From the IMG/VR virus record IMGVR_UViG_2925939204_000008: a stretch of 20,678 nt of DNA; one strand, 5' to 3'. Under the pieces are notes generated by a model that was not told where the DNA came from, did no database searches, and worked only from the letters and a program-made list of their open reading frames with translations. The stretch is from a virus (taxonomy: Duplodnaviria; Heunggongvirae; Uroviricota; Caudoviricetes). Position 1 is the stretch's first letter. Each line of letters opens with the position of its first letter. Below are positions 553-20,678 of the stretch, piece after piece. The position numbers were made by a program, and so were the translations under genes.

Positions 553-606
553 GAGAAATAACCCTGTAAAAATCCGGGATCATGCCATCTGAGCCGAATA
601 ACTGCA

Positions 607-2805: not shown

Positions 2806-2813
2806 GATGATTC

Positions 2814-4659: not shown

Positions 4660-4673
4660 ACGCCCTCCAAATA

Positions 4674-4736: not shown

Positions 4737-4756
4737 TAAAGAAATGTAATAAACGC

Positions 4757-5449
4757 ATGAACATAGGAAACCGAGTCAGACAACTTCGCCAAGCGAAGAA
4801 CATGAAAATCGCCGATCTCGCTGAAGCGATAGGAGTAGATGCGGCGAACATCTCGCGCTTAGAAACGGGTAAGCAAAAACAATTTACCGAACAAACACTG
4901 AGTAATATTGCCAAGAGCTTAGGTGTTGATATTGCTGATCTCTTTACCTCTGCCCACAAAAGTAATACTGTATATAAAAACAGTAATAATGAGGATGTTG
5001 CGCAGGTGAAGGATGTGTTCCGTATTGAAATGCTGGATATCAGTGCCAGTGCGGGAAATGGCCTTATCCAGGGCGGTGATGTCATTGATGTGATTCATGC
5101 CATCGAATACAGAACTGATAATGCTGTATCAATGTTCGGCGGACGACCAGCCAATCACATCAAAGTTATCAACGTTCGTGGGGACAGTATGTGTCCAACC
5201 ATTGAGCCAGGAGATCTCATCTTCGTTGATGTCAGCATCAATCAGTTTGATGGTGATGGTATATATGTCTTTGGTTTTGATGACAAAATATACGTTAAAA
5301 GACTTCAAATGATTCCTGACAAACTGCTGGTGATTTCTGATAACCAGATTTACCGTGAATGGGGAATTACTAGCGAAAACGAACACCGATTCATGGTCTT
5401 TGGAAAGGTCTTAATCAGTCAGTCGCAAACCCTTAAGAGACATAATTAA
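4757..5449 (+). CDS. CI-like phage repressor, N-terminal HTH plus C-terminal LexA-like S24 peptidase domain
   Basis: 230 aa; N-terminal HTH (MKIADLAEAIGVDAANISRLETG); C-terminal S24 signature GDSM (Ser) and downstream KRL (Lys). Confidence 0.85.
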   Translation: MNIGNRVRQLRQAKNMKIADLAEAIGVDAANISRLETGKQKQFTEQTLSNIAKSLGVDIADLFTSAHKSNTVYKNSNNEDVAQVKDVFRIEMLDISASAGNGLIQGGDVIDVIHAIEYRTDNAVSMFGGRPANHIKVINVRGDSMCPTIEPGDLIFVDVSINQFDGDGIYVFGFDDKIYVKRLQMIPDKLLVISDNQIYREWGITSENEHRFMVFGKVLISQSQTLKRHN

Positions 5450-5468
5450 CCTCAATATCCCATCCATC

Positions 5469-5491
5469 GGCCACCGAAAGGTGGCTTTTTA
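5469..5491 (+). terminator. Rho-independent terminator after the repressor gene
   Basis: GC stem GCCACC / GGTGGC with GAAA loop followed by TTTTTA. Confidence 0.7.
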
Positions 5492-5502
5492 TTACCTATA
5501 AA

Positions 5503-5540
5503 TTTGCATATATAGCAAATATAACTTGCATATCTCGCAA
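5503..5540. promoter_or_regulatory. Two operator-like palindromes (TTTGC-N7-GCAAA and TTGC-N7-GCAA) upstream of the xis-int operon
   Basis: TTTGCATATATAGCAAA (5503-5519) and TTGCATATCTCGCAA (5526-5540) share the TTGC/GCAA half-sites seen in the cI-cro intergenic region. Confidence 0.4.
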
Positions 5541-5845
5541 TTTAATTTTATCTTTTGTTCCAGACCAACTACAGGATTACAACAAAATCTGGTTGCAACA
5601 CGGTGCATGTGTCGTAAGCAGTCAGTAAATGTCAAAAACGAACAGGCAGGACGCCCACGAAGTAGCCGCCTGGGGCATATGAAGTCCAGGATGATTCGTT
5701 AGCAACAAAAAAGCGCCCTACAGGACGCTTAGCTCTTTAACAATCTGGTCCCCATCAACAAGTAACTGATAACTTGAGGAGACCTTGAAAACGTCAATAT
5801 CACTCACTGGGCAGTAATGCCAAAAGCACCGGAGGCTGGAGCATA

Positions 5846-6151
5846 ATGACCACTTTTACCGACAAAGAACTGATTAAAGAAATTAAAGAGCGTATCAGCA
5901 GCCTTGACGTGCGAGACGATATTGAGCGCCGTGCTTATGAAATCGCACTCCTATCTCTGGAAGTAGAACCAGATGAACGCGAAGCTTATGAATTATTCAT
6001 GGAAAAGCGTTTCGGTGACTTAGTAGATCGTCGGAGAGCAAAAAACGGCGATAACGAATACATGGCATGGGATATGACTCTCGGTTGGATCGTCTGGCAG
6101 CAACGAGCAGGTATCCATTTTTCAACAATGTCACAACAAGAGGTGAAATAA
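5846..6151 (+). CDS. Hypothetical protein (101 aa), translationally coupled to xis
   Basis: ORF with acidic helical composition; stop TAA overlaps the xis ATG (TAATG at 6149-6153). Confidence 0.5.
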   Translation: MTTFTDKELIKEIKERISSLDVRDDIERRAYEIALLSLEVEPDEREAYELFMEKRFGDLVDRRRAKNGDNEYMAWDMTLGWIVWQQRAGIHFSTMSQQEVK

Positions 6152-6501
6152 TGGAGCCATACAGCCTCACACTCGATGAGGCCTGTCATTTTCTCAAGAT
6201 ATCCAGACCGACTGCCATTAACTGGATACGCACAGGGCGTCTTCAGGCAACACGCAAAGATCCCACTAAGAATAAATCTCCTTACCTCACAACACGACAA
6301 GCCTGCATTGCGGCTCTTCAGTCTCCGCTGCATACTGTCCAGGTGAGCGCGGGTGATGGCATAACAGAGGAAAGAAAATGTCACTCTTCCGCAGAGGTGA
6401 AATATGGTACGCCAGTTTCACATTGCCGAACGGTAAAAGATTTAAACAGTCTCTTGGAACAAAGGACAAAAGGCAGGCGACAGAACTCCATGACAAGCTA
6501 A
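6151..6501 (+). CDS. xis: Excisionase / AlpA-like DNA-binding protein
   Basis: [33 protein letters not shown] is a typical excisionase HTH; start chosen at the ATG at 6151; reading frame stays open to 6501, overlapping the int start by 124 nt, so the true end is uncertain. Confidence 0.65.
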
Positions 6502-7541
6502 AGGCTGAAGCATGGCGGGTCAGCAAACTTGGTGAAATACCTGATATAACGTTCGAGGAAGCGTGTGTCAGGTGGCTTGAAGAGAAAGCACATAAAAAAT
6601 CGCTGGACGATGACAAAAGCCGGATCGGATTCTGGCTTCAACATTTCGCAGGAATGCAACTAAGAGACATTACTGAATCAAAAATTTATTCAGCAATGCA
6701 GAAAATGACGAACCGGCGTCATGAGGAAAACTGGAAACTCAGGGCAGAAGCATGCAGAAAAAAAGGGAAACCTGTTCCAGAATACACGCCAAAACCAGCG
6801 TCCGTTGCAACGAAGGCTACGCATCTTTCATTTATAAAGGCCCTACTAAGAGCCGCAGAGCGTGAATGGAAAATGCTGGATAAGGCACCAATTATTAAAG
6901 TGCCTCAACCAAAGAATAAACGGATCCGCTGGCTGGAGCCCCATGAAGCACAAAGGCTGATTGATGAATGTCCGGAGCCATTAAAGTCTGTTGTTGAATT
7001 TGCACTGGCAACAGGCTTAAGACGCTCGAACATCATCAACCTTGAATGGCAACAAATAGATATGCAGCGCCGGGTGGCATGGATAAACCCGGAAGAGAGT
7101 AAATCAAACCGCGCAATTGGCGTTGCGCTGAATGATACTGCATGTCGCGTATTGAAAAAACAAATCGGGAATCATCACCGTTGGGTATTTGTGTACAAGG
7201 AAAGCTGTACCAAACCAGACGGAACGAAAGCGCCAACAGTAAGGAAGATGCGGTATGACGCAAACACAGCCTGGAAAGCGGCGCTGAGACGGGCTGGTAT
7301 TGATGATTTCAGATTTCACGACTTGAGACACACCTGGGCAAGTTGGCTGGTTCAAGCCGGAGTCCCGTTGTCAGTGTTACAGGAAATGGGAGGCTGGGAG
7401 TCTATCGAAATGGTTCGTCGATATGCTCACCTTGCACCTAATCACCTTACCGAACACGCACGGCAAATAGACTCGATCCTGAACCCATCGGTCCCAAATT
7501 TGTCCCAGTCAAAAAATAAGGAAGGTACTAATGATGTGTAA
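6378..7541 (+). CDS. int: Tyrosine recombinase, phage integrase (e14 IntE-like)
   Basis: 387 aa; N-terminus [14 protein letters not shown]; catalytic-type motifs HDLRHTWAS and VRRYAHL; good RBS GAGGAAAG. Confidence 0.9.
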
Positions 7542-7713
7542 CTTATTGATTTTAATGGTGCCGATAATAGGAGTGTAACACGCGATAAATCTTGTGTTCG
7601 GGTCTTCTTCTACGACCTTCGCAACTACCTGATTTAACGATTTTTACGCACACTGATAATCTGGCATTCATCATGCACATGATAAACGCCCCTAAACTTT
7701 AACGGGGTGGAAA

Positions 7714-8937
7714 ATGAAATACAAGCCGGATCAATACATCATATCTGATAGTTACGGAGTTTATTACGTCAGGATTTCAATTCCTGTATGGCTTCGTAAT
7801 GCATTTGGTGGAAGAAAAACTCTCGTCCGTAGTCTGAACACTTCCGATCTTCGTGTGGCTCGTAGGAAGCGTGATGTTATAGCCGACGAATTTCACCACA
7901 TCAGGCAAATTGCAGAGCCGCCAAAACCGGACAGCTTGCAGGACACGATCAGCTTTTTAAAGAGCGTGGCTAAGTACGCGAAAGCTGCCCCGAAAGCATC
8001 AGCTCCGATTATCTACCAATGCCCCTCTCTGAATAAGATGTTAGAGATTTACCTCACGCATAACGCTGATCGCCTGAAAATGGGAACATTAAGCAAGACC
8101 AGAAAAGCCGTTGAACTGTTCCTGAATTACCTGCGAAAGAAGGATGTTGAACTAAACGATATCAACCGTACCACCGTTACAGGCTGGCTTGATCATCTCC
8201 GAGAGACAAAGGCAGTCCAGACAGTGGCTAACTACCTATCAGCAATGGCAAACATTCTCGATCTTGCCTCTTCCCGATACCAGGACGCCCCACCGCTGGA
8301 AACTAACGTGTTCAGGGGGCATAAACTCAACACAGCGCAGAGCCGCCAGAGTTACGAGGCATTCACGGACGAAGAAATTACGAAGCTCATTAGCACGTTT
8401 AACAAGTTAGGAGAGGACGAATTAAGGGATGTGAGCGCCATCGCCGCTTATAGCGGAATGCGCATCAATGAAATAGCCAGTTTGAAATCTGACAATATCC
8501 GTGAAGTTGAGGGGGTGTTATGTTTCGAGGTGACGGAGGGTAAGACACGCAATGCGGCGCGGTTGGTTCCACTTCATAGTGCGATTAGAAAAATGGTTCT
8601 GGAACGCTGCCAGAAGCCGCACAACGGCTTTTTATTCTACCGTGCAAGTGTGACCAAGAGACAGGACGGCAAGCGCTCCTCATGGCACGTAAACCGCTTT
8701 GGACGGCTTAAACGCGATATTCTCCCAGGGCAGGAAAACAAGGTGTTTCACTCGTACCGCCATGCAGTGATCAGTAAGCTAAACGCCGCCGGAGTGGATG
8801 AATCTCGTATTGCCTTGCTCGCGGGTCACTCATTTGGAGAAACTGAGTCTTTCAAGACGTATTCGAAGAGTGTTCCTGAGCGTATTATGAAGGAGTTAGC
8901 GGGGTATATTGAATTAATAAATTACAACGTCCAGTAA
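7714..8937 (+). CDS. int: Tyrosine recombinase, integrase of genomic-island type
   Basis: 407 aa; C-terminal catalytic region with HSYRHAVIS and a downstream Tyr; long N-terminal arm/core-binding region. Confidence 0.85.
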   Translation: MKYKPDQYIISDSYGVYYVRISIPVWLRNAFGGRKTLVRSLNTSDLRVARRKRDVIADEFHHIRQIAEPPKPDSLQDTISFLKSVAKYAKAAPKASAPIIYQCPSLNKMLEIYLTHNADRLKMGTLSKTRKAVELFLNYLRKKDVELNDINRTTVTGWLDHLRETKAVQTVANYLSAMANILDLASSRYQDAPPLETNVFRGHKLNTAQSRQSYEAFTDEEITKLISTFNKLGEDELRDVSAIAAYSGMRINEIASLKSDNIREVEGVLCFEVTEGKTRNAARLVPLHSAIRKMVLERCQKPHNGFLFYRASVTKRQDGKRSSWHVNRFGRLKRDILPGQENKVFHSYRHAVISKLNAAGVDESRIALLAGHSFGETESFKTYSKSVPERIMKELAGYIELINYNVQ

Positions 8938-8941
8938 TTAA

Positions 8942-8961
8942 GGGGGGATTATACATCCCCC
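8942..8961. terminator. Hairpin between convergent int2 and the 92-aa gene (possible bidirectional terminator)
   Basis: GGGGGGAT-TATAC-ATCCCCC stem-loop; no strong U-tract on either side. Confidence 0.35.
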
Positions 8962-8967
8962 GATAAC

Positions 8968-9246
8968 TCATTTATTCCATTCGTTTTGAATTTGATTCTC
9001 AACTGCTGGCAAAAGGTTATACCAGGAAGCAGAGTTATTCTTAGCATCAACAACAATCAACTTATCATCGCTATCCATCGCTGCCCGAACTTTTCTGGCA
9101 GCCTCTTCAACCGAATAATTCGAATTTACGTACCAGTTCGACTCGGTAACTTTTGCCCAGTTGCCCAAGGCCTTGATAGCATCATGCACAGCAGCATAAT
9201 CTTTGGTTTTGATCAAGTCATAGGTTACAAACAAGTTGTTAGCCAT
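8968..9246 (-). CDS. Hypothetical small protein (92 aa)
   Basis: ORF at the distal end of the minus-strand operon; N-terminal beta-strand-like LFVTYDL. Confidence 0.5.
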   Translation of the reverse strand: MANNLFVTYDLIKTKDYAAVHDAIKALGNWAKVTESNWYVNSNYSVEEAARKVRAAMDSDDKLIVVDAKNNSASWYNLLPAVENQIQNEWNK

Positions 9247-9304
9247 TTAATTCTCTCCAGACATTCAAATGAATAAGCACCGCTATGGGCACTTTGAGAT
9301 ATTT

Positions 9305-9433
9305 TTATTTCTTAGCTTTCTTGGTAGGGATTTTGATAGTTTCAGTTATCGTAGTATCAGGATGTCGTTTAGCTTCAATGGGCTTAACAAACTGACCAGT
9401 TATCGCAGAACGAACTACTGTTTTCTTAGCCAT
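9305..9433 (-). CDS. Small basic protein (42 aa), not in the ORF track
   Basis: ATG at 9433 preceded by GAGGTG with 5-nt spacing; translation MAKKTVVRSAITGQFVKPIEAKRHPDTTITETIKIPTKKAKK. Confidence 0.3.
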   Translation of the reverse strand: MAKKTVVRSAITGQFVKPIEAKRHPDTTITETIKIPTKKAKK

Positions 9434-9468
9434 AAAAACACCTCATCTTGGAGATAAAGAGTGAACTG

Positions 9469-9488
9469 CTTACCCTTTTAAGGGTAAG
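9469..9488. terminator. Perfect hairpin downstream of the 616-aa gene
   Basis: CTTACCC-TTTTAA-GGGTAAG inverted repeat; no U-tract, so terminator function is uncertain. Confidence 0.3.
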
Positions 9489-9584
9489 GGACAAACGAAG
9501 CGGCGTCAAAGAAAAACACCACATATACACATCCTTTACAAACCGAGCGCAATATGTGGTATTCCCATGTGATTTACATCACAA

Positions 9585-11435
9585 TCATCCCCCTGTGGAT
9601 GACTGACCGCTCAAGGCTGATAGCGTAAGGCTACGAGTGAATGAATCCGCACTCGCTTTTGCAGACCAGTCGATATAGTCAGACAATCGAGAAACATCAC
9701 TTTGCAGAGTCAATCCCACTTGTGGATTCACTTGTAGGTTGAATATCGGGTTCAACGTGTACGCTGGCGCGTTGCTGCTGTTGAGCGACATTGCCGAAGC
9801 ACGGAGATTTTCCCCTGAAAGGCTGTATTGATTAGTCGCTGTCCCTGCTTGCTGATTACCAACGCCCAACCAATCCATGATAGCCGGAGCCACTGAACGG
9901 GTATCAAACCCCGTTTTATCCTGAATCCAATCGGCCGTAGCATTCGCAGAGCCACCCACAGCACCATCATAAAGATTTTGAACAGCAGGTTTCTTAGTAT
10001 CGCTAAACCATTCAGGGTGTTGTTGGCGGAGAGTACTGTTAAGATCAGACACTACGCTGGAGATTTCTCCAACAAAGCCCGTCACCTGTTTAGCCAGGTC
10101 GCCTAATCCCTCTCCGAGCATACCAGCAGATTCTGTTATCACTTTGGTGTTCTTCACCAGGTCGTCACCACCATCAGCAAAGCCTTTCATAAAGCCTGTA
10201 AACATGCTGTTATCAACGCCATTCATGAGATTACCCATCGCTACACTCAGATCACCATATGCAAGAGTTTGCTTGATCTGCTCCTCGTTAAGAGTTTGAC
10301 CACTATCGACAAGCTGTTTCAGCGTCTTGTTATATTCTGCACCGTTGTTCATGAACATATCGGTGTAGTGCATCAGGTCATCACCTAAACTCTCTATAAG
10401 CGTACCAATCTGAGCCTGTGACATACCACGGCGTTGCCCTTCATTGGTAACTGCTTGAAGTAGATCAGCAGGACGATCCTGGAAGGATTTAATCTGTTCT
10501 TTGCCCCATCCAAACTTATTCATAATAGAAGTGATACCACCATCGCCGCCTTTCCATTCGCCATTTTTAAACTGGCTATCGTTCAGGGTCATAGCGATAC
10601 GTTCACGTACATCTTTGAAATTGTCCGTCACTTTATCGACATTGGCGCTATCAACTCCGTGTTGCTGCCCCCATGCCACCATCGTTTTAACTACGTTAGG
10701 ATTAGTCTTAACAAGTTCCGATTTTCTAACCAAGTCAAGATTTTCATTCCCTTTGTCAACAATTCGCTGCCCCACTCCGAGGGAGCCAGCCGTTAACGCA
10801 AGGCTTCCTAATACCCCACCACCGACGATAGGAGCATTCCCGCCCTTCTGAGCCTTTAGCTTAGTGGCTGCTGCGGCATACTGGGTACGCTGTGCCTGTG
10901 TCACTTTCGCTTGTTGTGCGGCTTCTCTGCGTAACAGGGTTACACGCTCGCGTATAAGCGCATTCATACGTTGAGAGCTAATATTCCCCTTCGCAAACTC
11001 TTCGCTTTGCTGATGAATATAACGTAACGCTTCATACTGAGATTTAGGATCAAGCCCGTATTTACCTTTAATTCCTGACACTTGTAGCCCTGCATGGCGA
11101 AGTTTAAGCTCGGCTGTCTCTTGGCGCTTCTGTAGCTGCTGCTTCGCTTTCAGATTGGCCTTTTCATCCCTGGCTTTCTGCTTCTCCGCCGCACGTTGGG
11201 CTTTCATTTCCTTCGTATCACGAGGCTTATCATTAAAACGTGCATCATCGGCTTGTTGACGGGCTTTCTGTCTGCGCTGCTTCAGATCCTGGAAGCGAAT
11301 CTTGGGATCGGCTATTTTCTGGAAGTGCTTTTGAAGGTTATCCGCTGCGGCCTTAGCCTCTGCAATACTCCCTTTGTCAACGGTGAAAGTTACGGTGTTG
11401 ACGATCTTACTTGTATTAATCTCAAGCATCGCCAC
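9585..11435 (-). CDS. Large structural-type protein, tape-measure-like (coiled-coil N-terminus, Gly-rich hydrophobic segments)
   Basis: 616 aa; K/R/Q/E-rich coiled-coil N-terminus then APIVGGGVLGSLALTAGSLGVG-type segments; GTG at 11435 or ATG at 11429 as start; function inferred from composition only. Confidence 0.4.
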   Translation of the reverse strand: MAMLEINTSKIVNTVTFTVDKGSIAEAKAAADNLQKHFQKIADPKIRFQDLKQRRQKARQQADDARFNDKPRDTKEMKAQRAAEKQKARDEKANLKAKQQLQKRQETAELKLRHAGLQVSGIKGKYGLDPKSQYEALRYIHQQSEEFAKGNISSQRMNALIRERVTLLRREAAQQAKVTQAQRTQYAAAATKLKAQKGGNAPIVGGGVLGSLALTAGSLGVGQRIVDKGNENLDLVRKSELVKTNPNVVKTMVAWGQQHGVDSANVDKVTDNFKDVRERIAMTLNDSQFKNGEWKGGDGGITSIMNKFGWGKEQIKSFQDRPADLLQAVTNEGQRRGMSQAQIGTLIESLGDDLMHYTDMFMNNGAEYNKTLKQLVDSGQTLNEEQIKQTLAYGDLSVAMGNLMNGVDNSMFTGFMKGFADGGDDLVKNTKVITESAGMLGEGLGDLAKQVTGFVGEISSVVSDLNSTLRQQHPEWFSDTKKPAVQNLYDGAVGGSANATADWIQDKTGFDTRSVAPAIMDWLGVGNQQAGTATNQYSLSGENLRASAMSLNSSNAPAYTLNPIFNLQVNPQVGLTLQSDVSRLSDYIDWSAKASADSFTRSLTLSALSGQSSTGG

Positions 11436-11619
11436 CGCCTTTTTTACTCACCAGATAATTAAGTGCATCTGATACACTACGCCCACGATGTAATAACTGA
11501 CGTAGATGACCGTGATCTATTTCAAGCACACGACACACTCCCGCCAGATTTAATAACTCTTCTGCTGTTTCAGCATTTACGGCGAGGTGAAGCCCCGCGC
11601 TTTTTACAATCACTTGCAT
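11422..11619 (-). CDS. Hypothetical small protein (65 aa)
   Basis: ATG with upstream GAGGAAAG; overlaps the start of the 616-aa gene by 14 nt. Confidence 0.45.
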   Translation of the reverse strand: MQVIVKSAGLHLAVNAETAEELLNLAGVCRVLEIDHGHLRQLLHRGRSVSDALNYLVSKKGGGDA

Positions 11620-11738
11620 TTATCTTTCCTCATTCTGGAAATAAAAAAGGGCGGGAACACTGGGGAGATGTTCCCAACGTTCACACGCCCTATTCAATAG
11701 CCTGATTATTTCCAGCGGGTCAGGCTCCCGCTTGCTCA

Positions 11739-12770
11739 TTAAGCAGTGATGGTGATCTTCACCTGCATACCTAACGCATGGTTCACTGGTAATGCGCTGT
11801 TTTCGTGCATAACGTGGTAAGCATCGCCGCGCTCGCTCAGGTAGCCCCAAGAGTAGTATTCAGCAGGTGCAGCATCGATCAGCGCAAAGTTACCAGAGGC
11901 AGCGCCGTAGATGTTCTGATAAGCATTTGTGCCTTTACTGAACACCGGAACCGCCACCATGTCAGCATCATCTGGCATCTGTGCAAGGATCAGCGGATCT
12001 GTCACTTTAACAATGTCGATAGGCGCACCAGGTAGGCTAAACGTACTAACACCAGGGAGAAGCTCGTGACGCTGGTAGAATAGGTTACGGTCGTCATATG
12101 GCGCTACATACTGGAACGCCTTAGACATACTGTCAGAGAAGCGAATCTGGCTAAATGCAGCAGGTTTAGCGAATACGATCACTCGTTCAATCTGTCCAGC
12201 CAATCCACCTGCGGCAGCCTGAACTTTGTCTAAGATCGCATCAAAATCCTGTGCCGCTGTCGCTGTGCTCACGCTGGCTGTCATTGGCACCACACCGAAC
12301 AGTTCAGCATAAGAGATCAGTAGGTCATCAGTTGCAGGCGTATAAACTTCACCTTTGAACAGAGCACGGGCCAGGTAAGACTCACGGGTACGCAGATAAG
12401 CAATCTTATGTTTGCCAGTGTATTCGGTGTACAGGTCGGTAACGGTTTGCTCGTAGTCCGTTCCCTGCACTCTGCGGCCTTGTACGTCTACAGGTTTAAA
12501 CTCATCTTCCCTTGCAAACCAAGGAATCTCGATAAGGTATTCTTTGCCATTCTGACGCGCGGTAGTGTCGTGGTTTGATGAATAACGGCTCTGCGGGGTG
12601 TTAAACAGGCTGTAGTTATCATCCAGAAGCTGTGTCACCACCACTTTCGGATTCTGAACACCTACCCCGTCGAATAGGTCGAGGGCATTCATAAGATAGT
12701 TACGTTCCGGCAGAGCCTGGAAGATTGGCGCTAAATCGACCATCTCACGCCCAATTGCGATTTTACTCAT
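11739..12770 (-). CDS. Putative major capsid protein (lambda gpE-like size and position)
   Basis: 343 aa (lambda gpE is 341 aa), directly downstream of a ~119-aa gene as in the lambda D-E pair; assignment from size, order and composition, not from confirmed similarity. Confidence 0.45.
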   Translation of the reverse strand: MSKIAIGREMVDLAPIFQALPERNYLMNALDLFDGVGVQNPKVVVTQLLDDNYSLFNTPQSRYSSNHDTTARQNGKEYLIEIPWFAREDEFKPVDVQGRRVQGTDYEQTVTDLYTEYTGKHKIAYLRTRESYLARALFKGEVYTPATDDLLISYAELFGVVPMTASVSTATAAQDFDAILDKVQAAAGGLAGQIERVIVFAKPAAFSQIRFSDSMSKAFQYVAPYDDRNLFYQRHELLPGVSTFSLPGAPIDIVKVTDPLILAQMPDDADMVAVPVFSKGTNAYQNIYGAASGNFALIDAAPAEYYSWGYLSERGDAYHVMHENSALPVNHALGMQVKITITA

Positions 12771-12786
12771 TATTTATCTTCCTTGA

Positions 12787-13146
12787 TTAAGAGGTGAAGA
12801 ATGGACGGCATACGAACCCTTTGGATTCGAGCGTGGTGATAGCTGCGGCGTGATTAGCTGCGTGCAGGTTGTCGGCTTTCAGTGCTACGAAGCTACCAAC
12901 ATTAGGCGCACGTAGGACATTCACGGTTTTACCGTCGCCAGCACTCACGAAATCACTTACCACCACAAAGGCATCATCGCCGGAGGTGTATAGAGCGCCA
13001 TCAGCGCCGATAACATCGCCGCATTCAATATCTGCTGGCAGGTCGAAAACACGGCCTTCTACGACTGCAAAAGAATCAGTGGCGTAGCTCAATACGTCAG
13101 TGAAACTCTTACGAATTGGGAAAAGTTCGGTTAGGTCTACAATCAT
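12787..13146 (-). CDS. Putative head decoration or small capsid-associated protein (gpD-like position)
   Basis: 119 aa, Gly/Ala/Val-rich, immediately upstream of the capsid-like gene. Confidence 0.3.
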   Translation of the reverse strand: MIVDLTELFPIRKSFTDVLSYATDSFAVVEGRVFDLPADIECGDVIGADGALYTSGDDAFVVVSDFVSAGDGKTVNVLRAPNVGSFVALKADNLHAANHAAAITTLESKGFVCRPFFTS

Positions 13147-13358
13147 TGTTGTTTGATTTCCTTGGATTTGATTGCGATCCGTTCCTGCATACTAAGTTGA
13201 GGTGTGTCCTCAGAAGGGAAATACTGGTCTACAGCTTTTTCTATTTCTTCAACGGTACATCCTGCCATTTCAGCCACTTTAGCTATTAACTCAGGATTAA
13301 CTTGAATCACTTCGGATTTGTATTTTAGGATTCGGTCGCGATTGTTTATTAAGAACAT
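13143..13358 (-). CDS. Hypothetical small protein (71 aa), first gene of the structural operon
   Basis: ATG at 13358 preceded by GAAGGAA; stop overlaps the next start (ATGA at 13143-13146). Confidence 0.45.
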   Translation of the reverse strand: MFLINNRDRILKYKSEVIQVNPELIAKVAEMAGCTVEEIEKAVDQYFPSEDTPQLSMQERIAIKSKEIKQQ

Positions 13359-13433
13359 TGTGTTGTTCCTTCGCGTTATAACTGCGTTTATCCTTCCATT
13401 GATAACGGAAGTGTTACATGCAGATTGTTAAAA

Positions 13434-13451
13434 AGGGGCGATTAAGCCCCT
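13434..13451 (-). terminator. Intrinsic terminator on the minus strand between the regulatory and structural operons
   Basis: Minus-strand RNA AGGGGC-UUAAUC-GCCCCU followed by UUUU. Confidence 0.45.
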
Positions 13452-14024
13452 GGAGAATATGCCCTTGTTAGAAAGCATTCTGTTAAAATCATTTTCGTTT
13501 CGGAGGATTATGATGTTAAAGAATGGCTTCTTGAAAAAATGAAGGGCGCAACTGTTACGAATAACAGAAGTAGGATCGCCCGTCATTGCTCCCACTTCAA
13601 AACAGAAGCCCTTCTGTCATGGCGAGAAGTGGGAATGGAATCTCAATATCACCACTGGAATAGTAATAAGAGATTGCCAGCCTGAACGTAACTACCGCTG
13701 ACGGCGTTTATTCAGTCTGACTACATTCATCCTAACGGAATGAATGAGCAAAGAGCGAATGCCCTTTCTGAAAAAGTCGGAGATGCGCGGTGATTGCGAT
13801 GCAATACCAACACAACGAGATATTACATCCCGCGCATTCCTTCGGAACAAACAAGACAAAGAACCAACACTTTCAGAAATAGCATTCAGAGGGAGAGAAT
13901 GCCGCTATGGGAACGGCATTCTCAAGGAGTGCGTATTGACATACGAGGGTGAAGTGATTCGAATACTTACCCTATAACTCATTATGACACATATAGCACA
14001 TAATGTCAAGACATTTAGTAACTT

Positions 14025-14363
14025 TTATGTTATGGCGCATTCTTCCGCGATCTGGATGGAAAGCTCTCCGAGTTCAACGGTGATGTATTGCAGAGAGCAA
14101 GCAAGCTCCTCAAGGTCATTAGCTACACGCCACGCTTCTTCTGGTGTGATCGAACTGCCGTCACGCTGCACCAAACGAGCTACAGACGTTTGCAGATGTT
14201 CAAGGGCAGTGATTGCCTGTTCAGTGTATTGCACCGCTTCCAGAAGCGCGGAGGGCGTTCTCTCACGCCACGCTGCATTAACAAGCTGTAAGGTTGGTAA
14301 ATGCCAGTTGTCGTGGAAAGAGTTAATTAGGGTGTTCACTGTGTCCATAGTTTTATTATTCAT
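14025..14363 (-). CDS. Hypothetical protein (112 aa from the ATG at 14363)
   Basis: ORF track gives 14025..14459; the ATG at 14363 overlaps the upstream stop (14356-14358) and is the likelier start. Confidence 0.45.
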   Translation of the reverse strand: MNNKTMDTVNTLINSFHDNWHLPTLQLVNAAWRERTPSALLEAVQYTEQAITALEHLQTSVARLVQRDGSSITPEEAWRVANDLEELACSLQYITVELGELSIQIAEECAIT

Positions 14364-14739
14364 TGTTTTCCTTGTCGTCAAAGAGAATATCAAACTCTTG
14401 TGTGTGCTGGGATAGCCCCCAGGTTTGACAATACCCAATATAATCGGCGTAATGTTCAAATCCTGCTATTTGCCATTTCTTGAGATGGCTACTATCTATA
14501 ATATATTCGCGTCTGCGTCGTGGTTTGTAATAAACGTTATCCGTTGACGATAGAACATCCTGCAATAGTTCAAACTCTAATCCATTTGGTACTACTGCGG
14601 GATATTCTTTAATAGTTGTCACCATCTCACCAGGAATAGACTCTCGTGCGAGGTCTTGTAGAGAAGAGGTGTATTTACGTTTGCTGATGCGTGTGGCTTT
14701 TTCGATTCTAACAAGGTTACTTCGTTCTTTTCGTCCCAT
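14356..14739 (-). CDS. Hypothetical protein (127 aa)
   Basis: ORF in operon context; basic N-terminus; no recognisable motif. Confidence 0.45.
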   Translation of the reverse strand: MGRKERSNLVRIEKATRISKRKYTSSLQDLARESIPGEMVTTIKEYPAVVPNGLEFELLQDVLSSTDNVYYKPRRRREYIIDSSHLKKWQIAGFEHYADYIGYCQTWGLSQHTQEFDILFDDKENNE

Positions 14740-14843
14740 TCATTCCTCGTAGAGGGGAAACTCCTTGTCTGGTTATAACGTAAACGCCATAGAATATGGT
14801 GAACCACCATAAAGCAGTAATCATAAAAGTTTCCCGATTGTTG

Positions 14844-15305
14844 TTATTTAGTCGTAAGTGTAATGTCGCATCCTTTACCGCGACCAGGTTTGATTAACGT
14901 AGTAGTTAGATAATCATTGCGGCGAAGCTTGCGAATCGCACTGGATACAGTTGCCACACTTATCCCCAACACTATCGCTATTGACTCCTGTTTCACATTT
15001 GTTAATGATGGCAGTGATTCGAGGTGCATTAATACCAGACGTTCCGAAGGAGACAGATTCTTATCGTGAAGATGTGGGGATGTCATTTTACATTCTATCT
15101 CTTTCGGTGGCTTCATCGCTGCATTGAATAGCGTAACAAGAGCATTAGCGTAACTTGATTCACCTCGCTCAGCGTAAACATCTACAAGTTCTTGCGCTTG
15201 TTCGAATGCAACACCTCTTTCAACTTCTGGATTTAATAAACTGGCAAGATGGATGATGTTAAGATCACGTTCGTTGTATTGTTTGGGTATAACCGTTTTC
15301 AGCAT
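14844..15305 (-). CDS. Winged-helix (MarR-like) DNA-binding protein
   Basis: C-terminal wHTH-like LSPSERLVLMHLESLPSLTNVKQESIAIVLGISVATVSSAIRKL. Confidence 0.5.
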   Translation of the reverse strand: MLKTVIPKQYNERDLNIIHLASLLNPEVERGVAFEQAQELVDVYAERGESSYANALVTLFNAAMKPPKEIECKMTSPHLHDKNLSPSERLVLMHLESLPSLTNVKQESIAIVLGISVATVSSAIRKLRRNDYLTTTLIKPGRGKGCDITLTTK

Positions 15306-16039
15306 AAATGTTCTATTTCCTCGTAGATTGGTTTAAGTTTTGGATTCTTCTCTGTGTCCAGGTATCCGTTAATAAGTAGCCATCTGATTTTCGGATGTTG
15401 TGAAACTGGTAGATTCTTTTCAGGATTCTCCCATTCATCCCGATAACCCTCAAGAAAGTTTAAATTAACTGGCTCTATCTTAATATCTTTAGCTGGAATG
15501 GAGGCGGGTTTCTTCGTAGGCATTTTCTTTGGCTTCTCCGGCTTCGGATCTGCTTTGGCCTCTTCTGGCACTGACTGCTGTTTTTCTTCCTCTGGCGCTA
15601 CGTCTTCTTTAGCTTTGCCAAACACGGGATGTTTCAGACAATCTACCCATTCCGGCGCGGAATCACGTTCCATCGCATTACGATCACGTTCAAAGGTGAA
15701 GTTTTGCGGCGTGAGTGGCGTTATAGTCCATTGGTTAGAGCGCTTTGGCTTATTACTGGCGATCAGTCCGATTTTCTTCAACTTTGCAACAATACGTGTT
15801 GCCGTAGCCGAGCTGACACCAATACTTGCACCAAGTTGATCAATGTCATCGTAATAAGTACCGCCCAACTCTATCGCAAAGCGATAATAACGATGGCGCA
15901 TTCTGACGTAAAACTGCTTATCAGCAGGAGACAGGGACTCTGTTACGCCTGTTTTAAGATTGGTGATCCTGGTGCATTCGTTAAATGCGTCTTCGGTGTT
16001 GGTGAAACTAAAAGCCTTACTGTTTATAATGTCAGTCAT
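15299..16039 (-). CDS. DNA-binding protein with lambda O-like architecture (N-terminal wHTH, K/P/E-rich linker, C-terminal domain); possible replication initiator
   Basis: SPADKQFYVRMRHRYYRFAIELGG...GVSSATATRIVAKLKKIGLI resembles the replication protein O N-domain by recall; long low-complexity linker. Confidence 0.4.
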   Translation of the reverse strand: MTDIINSKAFSFTNTEDAFNECTRITNLKTGVTESLSPADKQFYVRMRHRYYRFAIELGGTYYDDIDQLGASIGVSSATATRIVAKLKKIGLIASNKPKRSNQWTITPLTPQNFTFERDRNAMERDSAPEWVDCLKHPVFGKAKEDVAPEEEKQQSVPEEAKADPKPEKPKKMPTKKPASIPAKDIKIEPVNLNFLEGYRDEWENPEKNLPVSQHPKIRWLLINGYLDTEKNPKLKPIYEEIEHLC

Positions 16040-16053
16040 GTTAGGGTGTATCC

Positions 16054-16230
16054 TTATTTGGTAGAACGTTCTCCGTTCTTAATTGATGTGGAAAGTGTGG
16101 TTGCAGCGTCAATTAACATCTCCTGCACTGTTACGCCTCTCGCTCGCGCCTCTTTGAACAAAGTACTAAACACTTCATCCGGCAGTTTTACGAATGTTCC
16201 GGCTGGTTTCTTCTTCTGGATTTCGCTCAT
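16054..16230 (-). CDS. Ribbon-helix-helix (Arc/CopG-like) DNA-binding protein, 58 aa, not in the ORF track
   Basis: ATG at 16230 preceded by AAGGAG; MSEIQKKKPAGTFVKLPDEVFSTLFKEARARGVTVQEMLIDAATTL has a beta-strand then two helices as in RHH repressors. Confidence 0.5.
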   Translation of the reverse strand: MSEIQKKKPAGTFVKLPDEVFSTLFKEARARGVTVQEMLIDAATTLSTSIKNGERSTK

Positions 16231-16248
16231 TTGGTTTCTCCTTCTGGT

Positions 16249-16497
16249 TTATTCGTTGGTGGTGGTTTCAGCCTGTTCAGCTTTCCATTGATCGTAAAGT
16301 TCGATTCCTTTACGCAATCTTTCAGCGTGTTCGAAATATCCTTGCCGTTGTGCGGCTGCTCGCTGGCTGTTTATTGCATTTCGCGTCTGGCTTCCGGCCT
16401 TTAAAGCCTCGAAGACAAGTTCTGGATTAAAATACTTAATTTTGGTTCTCCTTGCGTTAGAAACACAGAAACACCATCCAGGGAGAACGTTAATCAC
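16249..16497 (-). CDS. Hypothetical protein, first ORF of the regulatory operon (start uncertain)
   Basis: ORF track uses a GTG start at 16497; an ATT codon with AAGGAG 7 nt upstream is an alternative. Confidence 0.35.
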   Translation of the reverse strand: MINVLPGWCFCVSNARRTKIKYFNPELVFEALKAGSQTRNAINSQRAAAQRQGYFEHAERLRKGIELYDQWKAEQAETTTNE

Positions 16498-16592
16498 GTT
16501 GCCTGATAGTGCGGTGTAAGTTGGATTGTTTGCGTTAGGCTGGATGCCTGAGATGAGGACGGGATGAATGCTTTCATTACCCTACATCATTT

Positions 16593-16672
16593 ACTTTAAC
16601 ATGAAATGATTTAAGTGTCAACACTTATTTAAATCCCTTTCAAATTATAGCGCATTTCCACGTTGTGATCAA
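16593..16672 (-). promoter_or_regulatory. Two tandem sigma70-like promoters directed into the minus-strand regulatory operon
   Basis: TTGATC (16667-16672) 17 nt TATAAT (16644-16649), and TTGACA (16616-16621) 17 nt TAAAGT (16593-16598), read on the minus strand. Confidence 0.4.
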
Positions 16673-17223
16673 CTCATTCATGTCATCATAAAACGCGGTC
16701 TATCGCTTTCTAACAGGTTTGAAAGCCTGAGAGTTGCAATCCCCTCCCTATCCTCTCAAATTCGCTCTCAGCGCGTCTGGGGCGTTCCGTTTGCGTTACC
16801 GCCGCCCTCTGGCACTTACTCCCGAAACCAATAGCACAACTACTGAGGGATAACGTTAGTTATCAGGATAGTAGGTGATGGTATTGGATTGAGGCTGGAT
16901 GAACTGGAGCCATCAGCGACCAGTGAATCCTTAGCCGTGGGCTAACTTTGCATGGATGAATGCGGAGCATGGAAGACAGGCAGAAGTTATGCTGAAAGAC
17001 ATTGCGCACACGGCGCATAGCTTCTGTGCCTCGTTTCACGAGGGCGAAGCCCTGGCACAATCACAGACAGATGCGCTACGCTGCGTCGTGAGCGGCTGAC
17101 CGAGTAGCCCCCAAAGGCGAATCAGGTCACTTGCCAGGCGATACGCGCCAGCAAAGCGAATCTTTAACAAGATCTTCTAAAAGCTCTCTTTTAGAGATCG
17201 CTTTTAGAATCTCTTTGTATAGA

Positions 17224-17305
17224 ACATCAATTTGATGTGTAGTTTGCCGATCCATACATCAATTTGATGCGTATCCCATGCATCTATACATCATTTTGAT
17301 GTATA
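17224..17305. repeat. Three 18-bp direct repeats at exactly 32-bp spacing, each with an internal palindrome ACATCAA(t)TTGATGT
   Basis: ACATCAATTTGATGTGTA (17224-17241), ACATCAATTTGATGCGTA (17256-17273), ACATCATTTTGATGTATA (17288-17305). Confidence 0.8.
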
Positions 17306-18061
17306 ACGCCCCCAACTAACTCTGATTCATCCATGCAACAACACTAAGAGTAACGAGAGGTTATTCCTATCAAAACAACACGATAATCATAGCTAAGCCT
17401 ATCTTAAATGACAGGTAAAGATTGCCGTTGTTACATGGGTAAAGTTGCCATAGTCAGCAAGATAGTAACCATCACTCACTTTGCGTAAAGCCTTGCGCCA
17501 TGCGGCTCACAGCGATCATTGTCCACAATGAGGAGTTTCATGACAGGTGCAATGTGCTGAACGAGTTTTCTAAAATGAAACGATGTTTCTTTTTCATGCC
17601 AAAATCCACCAATTGATTAGCATTCTAATCATTTCATTACACACTCAGTTTCAAGTGCATAAACTCCGCATAATTTGTGCATACAGGCAGGTTAGCCCCG
17701 CCCTCGCCTAACAACCTTACATTTATCAGATTTAAATCAATGAGATAGACAATAACCACACACAAGCATTGGTAGTGTGATGTTCCGCTGTTGCCGCTGT
17801 TCTTCGTGCAGAGTTGAGGATTTGGCAATGTTCAAACACATGTTTATAAATGCCAACATCATGATTTTGTTCAAGATATTTAGAGGAGAAGAAATTTTCG
17901 ATCTGGAGGCGGCCCTGGAGGTCGTTAAGCACTGGACGCAATCGCGCCATTTACCACACACAAGACAGTTCGATTTTTGATCATTTATATTGCAACTTAC
18001 TGAAATTGATCATATTGTTTGTTTCGTTGAGTTTAGATGTGTGTCTTTATGGGAGGGTAAA

Positions 18062-18622
18062 TTGAACAGAGCAGTAGTGTTAGACGAACAGCAAGCCAAA
18101 GCGATCAGGGAGTGGCTAAACGCTCATAACAAGAGCCTGATAGCTGACGTTACGTTAATGATGCAAGCCGCTGTACTGCGTGTGGGGGATGCCGTAGCGT
18201 TACGCTTCGACGAAGTGATCAACGGTGAGATTGACATAGAAGAACAGAAGACAGGGAAGCGTAAAGCCCTCACTCTCCCTGCTCCAGTGGTGCAGATGAT
18301 TGCTCGTCGCCGTGCTGAGTATCCGCATGATGTGCATGTGTTCAGAAGCCAGCGTAACCGATCAATGAACAAGCAAGCGCCTGTACGACGCGAAGAAGTG
18401 AGCAAGCAGATCGCAGAGGCCGCTAAAGCTATCGGTATTCATGGCACTGTATCAGCTCACAGCTTCCGCAAAGCTGGCGGGAATGCCATCTACAAGCGTT
18501 CAGCAAACAACATCGCTTTAGCTATGACCGTGCTTAATCACAGCAACATCACTGACACCAGGCGCTATCTGGATTTAGACAAGCAAGCCGTTAGCCGTGT
18601 GATCAATGAGATGGACTTATAA
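18062..18622 (+). CDS. Small tyrosine recombinase, catalytic domain only (FimB/FimE-sized or truncated integrase)
   Basis: ORF open from 17990; likely start TTG at 18062 after GGGAGGG, or GTG at 18041; motifs ALRFDEV, HSFRKAGG and TRRYLDL fit the R...H-x-x-R...Y catalytic pattern. Confidence 0.65.
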   Translation: MNRAVVLDEQQAKAIREWLNAHNKSLIADVTLMMQAAVLRVGDAVALRFDEVINGEIDIEEQKTGKRKALTLPAPVVQMIARRRAEYPHDVHVFRSQRNRSMNKQAPVRREEVSKQIAEAAKAIGIHGTVSAHSFRKAGGNAIYKRSANNIALAMTVLNHSNITDTRRYLDLDKQAVSRVINEMDL

Positions 18623-18632
18623 GGAGATACGC

Positions 18633-18830
18633 ATGAAACGCTTGCTTGTGCTGACGCTGACAGTAATGCCAGTCCTGGCGAATGCCGGACAGATAACCCT
18701 GATTCTCAGTGACGAACAGGAGACAGACAACGCGAAGATTTGCGTTTATTCCAACGCCAACTTTACGGAGACAGTGACGCTCAGGCCGTCGCAGCAATGC
18801 CGCTACACAATGACCTTTGAAGAGGAGTAA
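18633..18830 (+). CDS. Small secreted or periplasmic protein with signal peptide (65-aa precursor)
   Basis: ATG at 18633 with AAGGAGA 5 nt upstream and 10 nt after the recombinase stop; MKRLLVLTLTVMPVLANA signal-like N-terminus; two Cys in the mature part. Confidence 0.5.
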   Translation: MKRLLVLTLTVMPVLANAGQITLILSDEQETDNAKICVYSNANFTETVTLRPSQQCRYTMTFEEE

Positions 18831-18888
18831 CAATTGAAGAAGGAAGACAAGCAGATAACCAGCGTGGTCTGGTGCGGTGTATAAGTAA

Positions 18889-19368
18889 TCACTGCTTGGA
18901 ATCACGTAGGATCAGAGACAATATCCACCACCAGCGACGACGCAGCCAACTAACATCACTGAACAGCTTCCCATCAGATGTAGTAACATACACCCCTCCG
19001 CGATGATGCACCTTATTATGGTGAGCCTTATTGATGAATGGTACTTCTAAGATCATTTCATCACGGGCTTTTAATCGGCGTGGCAACATGGGGCTGATCA
19101 TGTATTCATCACAATGTTCGTTAGAACAATCGCTAAGGCGTCCGCTGGCGGTTACTATGCCCGCCGAACTTATCGTCACATCATGGGCGCTTTTGTTGGA
19201 AACATAAATTCTGTCTTCATACTGATCGCAACCTAAGAAAAGGCGTAGATCTGTTCTGGATTTTAATAGCTGGAAAATGGATAGTGCAAACCCAGCCCAT
19301 GCGGCAAGCATGGTCAGATTATCAACATTAAGCAACCAATCTATCAAAGTTCCATCCCTTGAGAGCAA
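18889..19368 (-). CDS. Hypothetical membrane-associated protein (start uncertain)
   Basis: Hydrophobic helix LTMLAAWAGFALSIFQLL near the N-terminus; Trp/Arg-rich C-terminus WLRRRWWWILSLIL; TTG start at 19368 or ATG at 19311. Confidence 0.45.
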   Translation of the reverse strand: MLSRDGTLIDWLLNVDNLTMLAAWAGFALSIFQLLKSRTDLRLFLGCDQYEDRIYVSNKSAHDVTISSAGIVTASGRLSDCSNEHCDEYMISPMLPRRLKARDEMILEVPFINKAHHNKVHHRGGVYVTTSDGKLFSDVSWLRRRWWWILSLILRDSKQ

Positions 19369-19571
19369 AGATAATTAGCAATTCCTTGATGCTGTAAGTC
19401 AGTCAATTGGAAGTAGGAATCGAGTACGATTATGACTTGCGTGGCATTATCAGCATGAACAGAACCAGGGGTATCAGGAGGAAGCGAACCATCAAGGATG
19501 GCAGTAAAGTAACCCGATGAGATAGAGACTTTCAGGAAGCAATTGGGTAAAAATTCGTAACGTTCACTCAT
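19344..19571 (-). CDS. Hypothetical small protein (75 aa from the ATG at 19571)
   Basis: ATG at 19571 preceded by GAGGTGG; ORF track gives a longer version to 19658. Confidence 0.4.
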   Translation of the reverse strand: MSERYEFLPNCFLKVSISSGYFTAILDGSLPPDTPGSVHADNATQVIIVLDSYFQLTDLQHQGIANYLCSQGMEL

Positions 19572-19734
19572 AACCACCTCATTTTCAGATTGTTTCTGCA
19601 AAGCGTACATTACGAATTTTATTCTTTTACCGCATTTCAAACCAAATGACAATTCCATTGAATCAGTTGAGGATTTTAACCCTCACCGAAGATAACATAA
19701 CCTCAAAATGTCTATCGCTTCATTGAGGAAATGT

Positions 19735-20508
19735 ATGTCTACTGAAAATTTTGTCACCTTCTGGTTAGCCAGAGCCGATCTTCCATACTTTCTTGAACCC
19801 CATGAATTTTACGTTTCTGAGGCAAGGCGGCGGCTTCTCTCTCAGTTTGGTGATTTAGAACAAGAAGCAGAGAAGAGAGAACAACAGTTTTTGGAGACTA
19901 CTGCTGAGTATTTTGATCAAGATAACGATGACCCAATGGCGGCCTACGAGCAAGCCTATCATGAGGGAATTTATTATGTACGGTCGCTTCTGGAGATGCA
20001 AAATACCGTATTGTTGGCGTTGACAGCAGGTATGTATCATCAGTTTGATAAAAAACTAAGAGAACATACTATCAAAGAGCTAAGTAATTGGTGTGAAAGA
20101 GAATTGATTACCCCCATGATCTGGAATTTAACTTTCCATCAGCTAATTGATTTGCTCGAATGGATTGGCCTCACAATCAATGGAACCGAATACGGAGAAA
20201 GGATAAAAGCCTGTAACTTGGTGGTAAACGTATACAAGCATGGAGACGGCCCTGCACATCAAACACTATCAGTTGATCATCCTGAGTATTACCCAAACCC
20301 CACCGATGTTAGAGGCACGCAGATTGTCCCTAACCATGACGATTTACATGTCTCAGAAGATCAATTTGTAGATTTTGCTAACGCAATAACTGCTTTCTGG
20401 AACGCGGTTCCAGAAAATTGTTACTACTCAGATCTTAGAGAAGAACCCAAATGGTTGGATAGAGTTGTGACAAGATTCGAAAAAAAGCATAGGGGCAATA
20501 GGGGCTGA
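19735..20508 (+). CDS. Hypothetical protein (257 aa), function unknown
   Basis: ATG at 19735 with GAGGA 6 nt upstream (ORF open from 19708); no recognisable motif. Confidence 0.5.
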   Translation: MSTENFVTFWLARADLPYFLEPHEFYVSEARRRLLSQFGDLEQEAEKREQQFLETTAEYFDQDNDDPMAAYEQAYHEGIYYVRSLLEMQNTVLLALTAGMYHQFDKKLREHTIKELSNWCERELITPMIWNLTFHQLIDLLEWIGLTINGTEYGERIKACNLVVNVYKHGDGPAHQTLSVDHPEYYPNPTDVRGTQIVPNHDDLHVSEDQFVDFANAITAFWNAVPENCYYSDLREEPKWLDRVVTRFEKKHRGNRG

Positions 20509-20519
20509 TTAGCCCCATC

Positions 20520-20678
20520 TCAAAACATCAAGTTTGCAGCTCGCGCCAACTTGATTTCCTCTCGCTCTTCCTGCTTCTTAGCAAGCCAGGCTTTCCCCTC
20601 TGGTGTTGCCAGGAATTTACGGGCGTGAATCTTACGGTTGTTGCGCTTCGTGGCTGCTTTTTGGTTAGCTTTTGACAT
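20520..20678 (-). CDS. Small basic protein, possibly partial because the ATG is the last three bases of the window
   Basis: Minus-strand MSKANQKAATKRNNRKIHARKFLATPEGKAWLAKKQEEREEIKLARAANLMF with stop at 20520-20522; upstream context not visible. Confidence 0.3.
   Translation of the reverse strand: MSKANQKAATKRNNRKIHARKFLATPEGKAWLAKKQEEREEIKLARAANLMF

Follow-up and report, generated by a model that had tools for sequence, protein, structure and literature searches.

A conserved, structured non-coding block beside a putative iteron origin in phage-satellite-like islands of Enterobacteriaceae

What is a GC-rich, ORF-poor block of about 420 bp doing inside an integrated virus-like element? The question is raised by a 20,678-nt sequence (IMG/VR record IMGVR_UViG_2925939204_000008; hereafter the window, meaning this whole stretch), which is a piece of Escherichia coli chromosome and which holds such a block at positions 16740–17160. 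A preliminary description, made from the letters of the window, had suggested a structured non-coding RNA, a remnant of the gene into which an island had integrated, or a small-protein gene. Judged from sequence comparison, the block is a conserved, non-coding element with a covarying, predicted multi-helix fold. Our preferred reading, to which we assign a probability of roughly 0.45, is that it forms the core of an undescribed structured RNA of ∼0.4–0.5 kb, transcribed rightward into an adjoining replication origin and acting in cis on the firing of that origin; transcription of the block, its direction and its function are what we infer. The element is placed as follows.

16745–17160, + strand: conserved structured non-coding block (evidence: homologue alignments, covariation, fold z-scores and broken open reading frames, ORFs)

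In composition the block was much as first described, with 55.1% GC at 16740–17160 against 42.1% in the 420 nt to the left and 39.0% in the 420 nt to the right. GC content this high occurred in only 0.1% of the 421-nt segments across the island from 7600 to 20678, and the + strand of the block was purine-rich. The place given to it between promoters and a repeat array was confirmed, with promoter-like sites at 16593–16672 on one side and a three-copy array at 17224–17305 on the other. RefSeq annotation of the 99.9%-identical E. coli AR_0128 chromosome is empty over the equivalent of window positions 16497 to 18062.

Homologous copies (∼40) were recovered from E. coli, Citrobacter, a Scandinavium metagenome-assembled genome (MAG), viral contigs and metagenomes, and the 31 distinct ones were 53–97% identical to the window. 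Megablast and blastn searches placed the block in 25 of 5,426 complete E. coli genomes, always on the chromosome, and the matches in E. coli genomes were confined to islands of the kind described below; this check had been proposed in the preliminary description. A search pattern built on invariant positions (GGCT-N3-TGAAC ... GTGA ... CCTTAGCCG) retrieved true copies, two of them in viral contigs and 29 in metagenomes. Scanning species-representative genomes by way of the capsid protein gave only seven loci, one of them with the block (the Citrobacter copy), and look-ups of homologues of p58, a small protein of the neighboring operon, added one further copy, on two contigs of the Scandinavium MAG. 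The block DNA had no blastn or megablast match in the plasmid collection or in the phage collection. In diverged islands the block was the portion that still matched (88.5% identity in E203449 and 75.8% in A35).

The 47-codon + strand ORF at 16956–17099 is present with exactly the translation first given. In at least 20 of 29 homologues, however, ATGAAATGC replaces ATGAATGC, a 1-nt insertion right after the ATG that shifts the frame, and several further homologues contain stops. The statement that no ORF exceeded about 50 codons needs correction for a 65-codon, TTG-start ORF on the − strand (16863–17060); this frame is disrupted in most homologues, so that the block remains ORF-poor in substance, with neither ORF conserved. 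Relative to the window, the homologues carry 1-nt and 2-nt insertions or deletions (indels) within both frames. Because of these frameshifting indels, and because neither ORF is conserved, the alignments show that the block is non-coding.

Homologues were collected with nhmmer, alignments were made of the 31 distinct copies, and RNAalifold was run on a 30-sequence MAFFT alignment. On the + strand 64 pairs were predicted, 28 of which showed compensatory double changes, as compared with 11.3±2.1 in 500 shuffles. Pair cells were paired in 96.5% of cases versus 89.3% in the shuffles, and the covariation score was 0.200 versus 0.082. In slid controls, where the partner was shifted by 1–3 columns, only 4–12 pairs were changed on both sides and the score was at most 0.036. 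None of the 500 shuffles reached the observed value on any measure, and the covariation analysis in relatives that had been proposed at the outset thus came out in favor of a fold with the following parts.

16764–16767/17090–17093, + strand: closing helix of the core domain (consensus model)
16828–16887, + strand: long hairpin, tip at 16849–16864 (A-U replaced by U-A in 10 sequences)
16890–16896/16927–16933, + strand: helix enclosing the hairpin at 16903–16924 (consensus model)
16903–16924, + strand: hairpin, in CTGG/CCAG and CCGT/ACGG versions, with a 9-nt loop indel
16934–17056, + strand: multi-branch region (consensus model)
17029–17043, + strand: hairpin, in CTCG/CGAG, ACCG/CGGT, CCTG/CAGG and CTGAC/GTCAG versions
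17094–17135, + strand: 3' domain, in three compensated versions
17137–17149, + strand: hairpin 3' of the 3' domain (consensus model)

Length changes among the homologues were located in hairpin loops, and long unpaired stretches of the alignment were invariant. Five distant copies have an insertion of ∼70–100 nt within the loop after CCTTAGCCG, and this insertion is a stem-loop with compensatory changes of its own (CTACG/CGTAG versus CTAAC/GTTAG). An 11-bp helix seen in the single-sequence fold (16981–16991/17015–17025) was rejected, being broken, by eye, in L003 and in the long forms and lying outside the family consensus (here and below, L numbers denote loci used for comparison). As a separate observation, metagenomic locus L022 has the loop of the hairpin equivalent to 17029–17043 in reverse complement, CTCG-TGAAA-CGAG for CTCG-TTTCA-CGAG, with the stem intact, a hallmark of template-switch inversion in palindromic DNA.

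The two strands did not fold equally well. As single-sequence RNA the + strand reached −156.1 kcal/mol (z=−3.07, a value reached by 0 of 100 shuffles) and the − strand −142.1 kcal/mol (z=−1.44); with DNA parameters the z-scores were −5.62 and −2.58, respectively. Consensus energies pointed the same way, at −43.0 (+) versus −37.8 (−) kcal/mol for the 30 sequences and −113.5 versus −92.4 kcal/mol for the 25 short-form sequences, and the single-sequence energy was lower on the + strand in 24 of 25 sequences. The + strand was ahead in every composition-controlled comparison of the block itself, and we favor it as the structured strand. Helices common to the predictions for both strands were nearly all Watson-Crick (6 G.U and 3 A.C among 809 cells), and helices specific to either strand's prediction showed little covariation. 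The suggestion of a structured non-coding RNA has thereby gained support at the level of sequence, in a conserved, non-coding, covarying multi-helix fold that is better on the + strand, with transcription presumed.

No known RNA family accounts for this fold. Rfam 15 gave no match at the gathering threshold over the whole window. In E-value mode, applied to the gap region of the window, L011 and L012, the best matches were chance-level ones to miRNA, ctRNA and RT-6 (E≥0.06, far below gathering), none of which lay in the block's central conserved helices; the Rfam/Infernal check put forward in the preliminary description matched no family in any of these three divergent copies. In size class, complexity of fold, carriage on mobile elements and mostly unassigned function the block is reminiscent of GOLLD, ROOL, HEARO and OLE. 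It differs from them in having no Rfam 15 match, in its occurrence in Enterobacteriaceae and in its fixed linkage to a replication origin.

That linkage is seen in the module around the block which, from left to right, consists of a leftward rep operon (HTH153, Rep246, p58 and p82), a promoter/operator region, the block, an AT-rich region with GATC sites, and iterons. The features that immediately flank the block are listed here.

17161–17223, no strand assigned: AT-rich region of 63 bp (30% GC) with GATC at 17171 and 17196 and tandem 13-mer-like repeats
17224–17305, no strand assigned: three palindromic iterons ACATCAATTTGATGT at 32-bp spacing (repeat search; the only three copies in the window)
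16593–16621, − strand: P_L, promoter of the leftward rep operon, TTGACA-17-TAAAGT (promoter scan; equivalent site in L010, L013 and L019)
16644–16673, − strand: second promoter-like site, TTGATC-17-TATAAT (promoter scan), overlapping the palindrome GTTGTGATCAAC at 16662–16673

We interpret 17161–17223 as the putative DNA-unwinding element of an origin, and the iterons at 17224–17305 as candidate binding sites for its initiator. The features of an iteron-type theta origin occur here together: phased repeats, an AT-rich region and a winged-helix initiator-like gene nearby. A pattern search of the window for the iteron gave 7 matches versus 1.9 expected. The iteron sequence varies among related islands (GCCAnnTTGTCA in L002 and ACGGGTTTTTCCCGT in L003), and the initiators vary as well. 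Close relatives retain the AT-rich region together with the block, and distant relatives have a different AT-rich, repeat-bearing sequence in its place. DnaA boxes resembling TTATNCACA (at most one mismatch) were absent from 16740–17340; the nearest were at 17519, 17654 and 17676, and their count over the window was not above chance. In the most divergent block-bearing islands (L012, 9404–10090; L056, 1122–1823) a Dam-type adenine methyltransferase gene lies just past the AT-rich region and reads toward the block, which deserves mention given the GATC sites in the putative unwinding region.

The position of the block within its carriers was constant. Carrier islands were found at tRNA-Thr, tRNA-Leu and tRNA-Gly genes, in the leader of thiM with its thiamine pyrophosphate (TPP) riboswitch, and at a site between rluB and yciQ; at all five insertion sites the block was internal and in the same relative place. 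From the start of the block it is 230–250 nt to the start of the p82-type ORF, ∼500 nt to the p58-type protein of 52–58 aa and ∼700 nt to the initiator-like protein in every locus. In L004 and L008, which have capsid and recombinase regions in common with the window island (94% and 89% nucleotide identity, respectively, for L004; 69% and 85% for L008), the equivalent of window 14845–17399 has been replaced as one unit. The replacement in L004 encodes a DEAD/ResIII helicase-type protein and contains an AT-rich non-coding region and no block, and its small upstream proteins resemble those of L010, which does bear the block. All block-bearing modules encode winged-helix proteins, which belong to at least three sequence families and have PHROG matches annotated 'replication initiation', 'O-like' or 'DnaD-like'. 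A second type of island (TIR protein, serine recombinase, no capsid gene) likewise has the block together with a winged-helix initiator. Since the block accompanies winged-helix initiators only and is swapped with the module, it belongs to the replication module, of which it is the best-conserved part. A packaging (cos/pac) site was considered and rejected: the sister islands L004 and L008 have the same capsid genes without the block, and no phage record matches it.

Transcription of the block was assessed from the promoters around it. The −35 element of P_L (GTCAA on the + strand) is invariant family-wide, and an iteron-like half-site, TACATCATTT at 16583–16592, overlaps this promoter. Because the conserved, leftward P_L sits between the block and the operon, the block lies outside the rep-operon mRNA. 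In the commonest relatives (represented by L019) a rightward extended −10 promoter, TTCAAA-16-TG-TATAAT (10/12 plus TG), lies just left of the site equivalent to 16644–16673 and faces the block from ∼90 nt upstream. Copies of the L010 type show, by eye, TGnTATGAT at the same position. The promoter scan found no conserved − strand promoter within the block and, to its right, a single − strand promoter-like site (17414–17386) that is not conserved. As for the palindrome GTTGTGATCAAC, it contains a GATC site, lies just downstream of the rightward-promoter position of the relatives and is nearly unchanged even in relatives with a p58 of just 42% identity; distant relatives have other inverted repeats instead. 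It is likely to be an operator or a 5' hairpin.

Under our preferred reading, a rightward + strand transcript of ∼0.5 kb, starting in the divergent promoter region, would fold and enter the unwinding region, where it would act in cis by one of several routes: transcriptional activation, an R-loop or primer, or control of copy number. Specificity would come from the iterons and the initiator, which vary, and the conserved parts, block and AT-rich region, would face the host, so that the block would be the host-facing, initiator-independent half of the origin. Initiators that come without helicase or primase would be well served by such an arrangement. By analogy, the block is best read as an uncatalogued element that would work most like an origin-proximal pre-primer or activator RNA, with proposed resemblances of mechanism to ColE1 RNA II, to transcriptional activation in lambda and to transcript-primed, Rep-dependent plasmids.

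The comparison with ColE1 holds only in part. RNA II is likewise long (∼0.5 kb), untranslated, highly structured and immediately upstream of the point at which the origin opens, and the candidate promoter of the block would lie ∼500 nt upstream of the AT-rich region. ColE1, however, works without a plasmid initiator or iterons, while the module of the block includes three iterons and encodes a winged-helix initiator; the two resemble each other neither in sequence nor by Rfam. The block falls outside the ColE1 group on account of its initiator and iterons and of the missing match to RNA I. The likeness to lambda-type origins lies in an O-like winged-helix initiator (PHROG 391/8102), palindromic in-phase iterons and an adjacent AT-rich region. 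Replication of lambda requires transcription near its origin. In lambda the origin is part of the O gene and no structured block accompanies it, whereas here ∼1.2 kb, including the promoter region and the block, separate the origin from the rep gene.

Several points weigh against the preferred reading. No rightward promoter reached the scan threshold in the window, L010 or L013, and no intrinsic terminator closes the block. When the AT-rich flanks were included, the consensus energy slightly favored the − strand (−49.8 versus −46.4). The near-pure Watson-Crick character of the helices means that covariation alone cannot separate RNA from single-stranded DNA (ssDNA) or the + from the − strand. 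The covariation statistics are further limited by the diversity sampled, essentially three clades of homologues, and by the prediction of the fold on the same MAFFT alignment as was used for counting pairs. Finally, the link between the block and origin function is drawn from position and co-occurrence.

The most serious competitor, although we consider it unlikely, is that the fold works as ssDNA. Once the initiator had opened the AT-rich region and a host helicase had unwound leftward, the hairpins would serve as a priming or primosome-assembly signal for an initiator without helicase or primase. Stems that are nearly all Watson-Crick are what DNA hairpins should have, the z-score of −5.62 was obtained with DNA parameters, and the window scan showed no strong promoter. 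The block also adjoins the unwinding region, accompanies winged-helix initiators and is missing from the helicase-type module. As orientation-specific, hairpin-rich non-coding DNA beside an origin it is comparable to ssi/G-site signals, primosome assembly sites and the single-strand origins of rolling-circle plasmids. Known single-strand initiation signals are, however, much shorter than the block; ssi signals measure ∼60–150 nt, and the block is several times larger and more complex. With ∼400 nt, nested long-range helices, a structured insertion domain of 70–100 nt and no similarity in the plasmid collection, it departs from that pattern, and in many relatives a rightward promoter faces it. 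Because of its size, its nested long-range helices, its expandable domain and its long invariant unpaired stretches, action as RNA rather than as ssDNA is likely, if unproven.

Less probable still is a trans-acting regulatory RNA for immunity or against a helper, like P4 CI or P1 c4 RNA, whose source would be an untranslated leader and whose pairing partner would be the rep-operon mRNA or a helper-phage transcript; its position at the origin would then be incidental. The P4 and P1 RNAs likewise are untranslated and lie next to a satellite-like element's main promoter, and a conserved binding partner is suggested by the block's long unpaired stretches of invariant sequence. In the window lineage, moreover, + strand RNA of the block would be partly complementary to the 5' end of the rep-operon mRNA, by way of the following repeat.

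16454–16568, + strand: diverged direct copy of the part of the block at 16798–16907 (local alignment, z=8.0 versus shuffles), overlapping the start of p82, which is on the other strand

The copy includes the exact repeats AGGCTGGATG and GGATGAATGC, and similarity to 16798–16907 was significant also in L022, L024, L042 and L003. It is lineage-specific, however, and missing in L002, L010, L028, L034, L038 and L047, and RNAduplex energies of block against operon 5' end, in which only the window stood out, were not meaningful. P4 CI and P1 c4 RNAs measure 70–80 nt and have short complementary boxes, as against ∼400 nt and a complementarity that is not family-wide. Neither C4 nor any other antisense family in Rfam was matched, and the block follows the type of replication module, not the capsid or recombinase genes.

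It is improbable that the rep operon is transcribed from a − strand promoter in or beyond the iterons and has the block as a long, structured 5' leader, which might serve, for example, in initiator autoregulation. In iteron plasmids the rep promoter often adjoins the iterons, and both the slightly better − strand consensus fold with flanks and the orientation of the Dam-type gene in L012 and L056, right of the block and transcribed toward it, would agree with such a leader. Against it stand the conserved P_L between block and operon, the lack of conservation of the one − strand promoter-like site to the right, and the − strand's poorer folding in 24 of 25 sequences, with a z of only −1.44. A decayed integration-target fragment, another pseudogene or a small-protein gene, two of which had been among the first suggestions, is refuted even though the window copy contains the 47- and 65-codon ORFs: both frames are shifted or stopped in most homologues, the block keeps its place 4–9 kb from the attachment (att) repeats through five insertion sites, ARAGORN found no transfer RNA or transfer-messenger RNA in the window, E. 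coli genome matches occur in these islands only, and decay would not be expected to leave a covarying fold.

The proteins of the leftward operon were annotated as follows.

16249–16497, − strand: p82, first ORF of the operon (no family match; N-terminal part doubtful)
16054–16230, − strand: p58, small protein, possibly ribbon-helix-helix (RHH), present ∼500 nt to the left in nearly every locus that has the block
15299–16039, − strand: Rep246, winged-helix replication-initiator-like protein (MarR-like helix-turn-helix, HTH; Pfam DUF6945 at 27.9 bits, under the 28-bit cut-off)
14844–15305, − strand: HTH153, second HTH protein of the module (Pfam HTH_36, 1.6e-8), within the stretch 14845–17399 swapped as a unit in L004 and L008

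Homologues of p82 in relatives start later and have 51–57 aa; together with the duplication at 16454–16568, this casts doubt on the annotated N-terminus. The RHH hint for p58 comes from sub-threshold matches (E=0.002) of only the 52-aa protein at the same position in L013. The p58 family comprises 29 protein clusters, all from Enterobacteriaceae (Escherichia, Enterobacter, Citrobacter and Scandinavium). Rep246 matched PHROG 8102 ('replication initiation protein', 5e-10) and PHROG 391 ('O-like', 4e-5) and was without a tblastn match in either the phage or the plasmid collection; sequence searches of the PDB returned nothing for p58 or Rep246.

The carrier is bounded by a 20-bp direct repeat, ATGGTGCCGATAATAGGAGT, at 7555–7574 and at the 3' end of a tRNA-Thr gene (window-equivalent 21258). 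These att repeats delimit an island of 13.7 kb that runs from 7555 to window-equivalent 21277, past the end of the window (L001 10956–24678). From the block it is ∼9.2 kb to one island end and ∼4.1 kb to the other, and the preliminary description was therefore wrong in placing it next to a putative end; the constant internal position refutes the integration-target remnant that had been built on this. The island encodes an integrase (7714–8937), a 616-aa tape-measure-like protein (PHROG 16051, 2e-98), a lambda-gpE-like capsid protein (PF03864, 8e-15), several small proteins, two HTH proteins and a short tyrosine recombinase. Terminase and portal had no family match among the island proteins tested, and none is annotated in the island, which looks like a phage satellite. 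Our literature search found nothing relevant on DUF6945, on satellite families with capsid and tape-measure genes, or on structured RNA with iterons in satellites, and no description of the island family or of the block element.

Three further observations concern the surroundings. To the left of the island (window 1–7550) lies a decayed prophage with tail sheath and tube genes, terminase and tail-assembly pseudogenes, a repressor pair and an integrase (6378–7541), so that the thrW region holds two tandem integrated elements. The TIR/serine-recombinase islands of L011 (6482–17468) and L013 (6299–17364), which have no capsid gene, are each flanked by two annotated copies of the TPP riboswitch; apparently this type of island inserted itself into the thiM riboswitch leader, the riboswitch being duplicated in the process. 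From the iterons to the gene for the short tyrosine recombinase (18062–18622), ∼700 nt of the window (17340–18060) are unannotated, and this stretch, mostly from 17399–17555 onward, is 84–89% identical in L004 and L008, whose replication modules are completely different, and in the diverged L010. The DnaA-box-like sites at 17519, 17654 and 17676 fall inside it. It forms a conserved non-coding element in its own right, which may be a site of recombination, packaging or regulation.

If the block acts as RNA, it would be an uncatalogued large structured RNA in Enterobacteriaceae, the best-studied bacterial family, and one tied to a concrete job at a replication origin. To our knowledge, no phage satellite or chromosomal island has been described in which an iteron/initiator origin is combined with a long, structured transcript upstream. 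We tentatively raise, as a rather doubtful extension, that the block may represent a new class of structured RNA of ∼400–500 nt that is the initiator-independent half of a modular origin, primes or licenses the firing of an iteron origin on entering its unwinding region, and would thereby allow interchangeable winged-helix initiators, without helicase or primase, to work in the phage-satellite-like islands of this family. As ssDNA, the block would be a priming signal of unusual size. In both cases it would mark the origin of a poorly described family of islands that have capsid-like and tape-measure-like genes of their own and no terminase matched, and the rep operon, block, AT-rich region and iterons together form a compact cassette that should be experimentally tractable.

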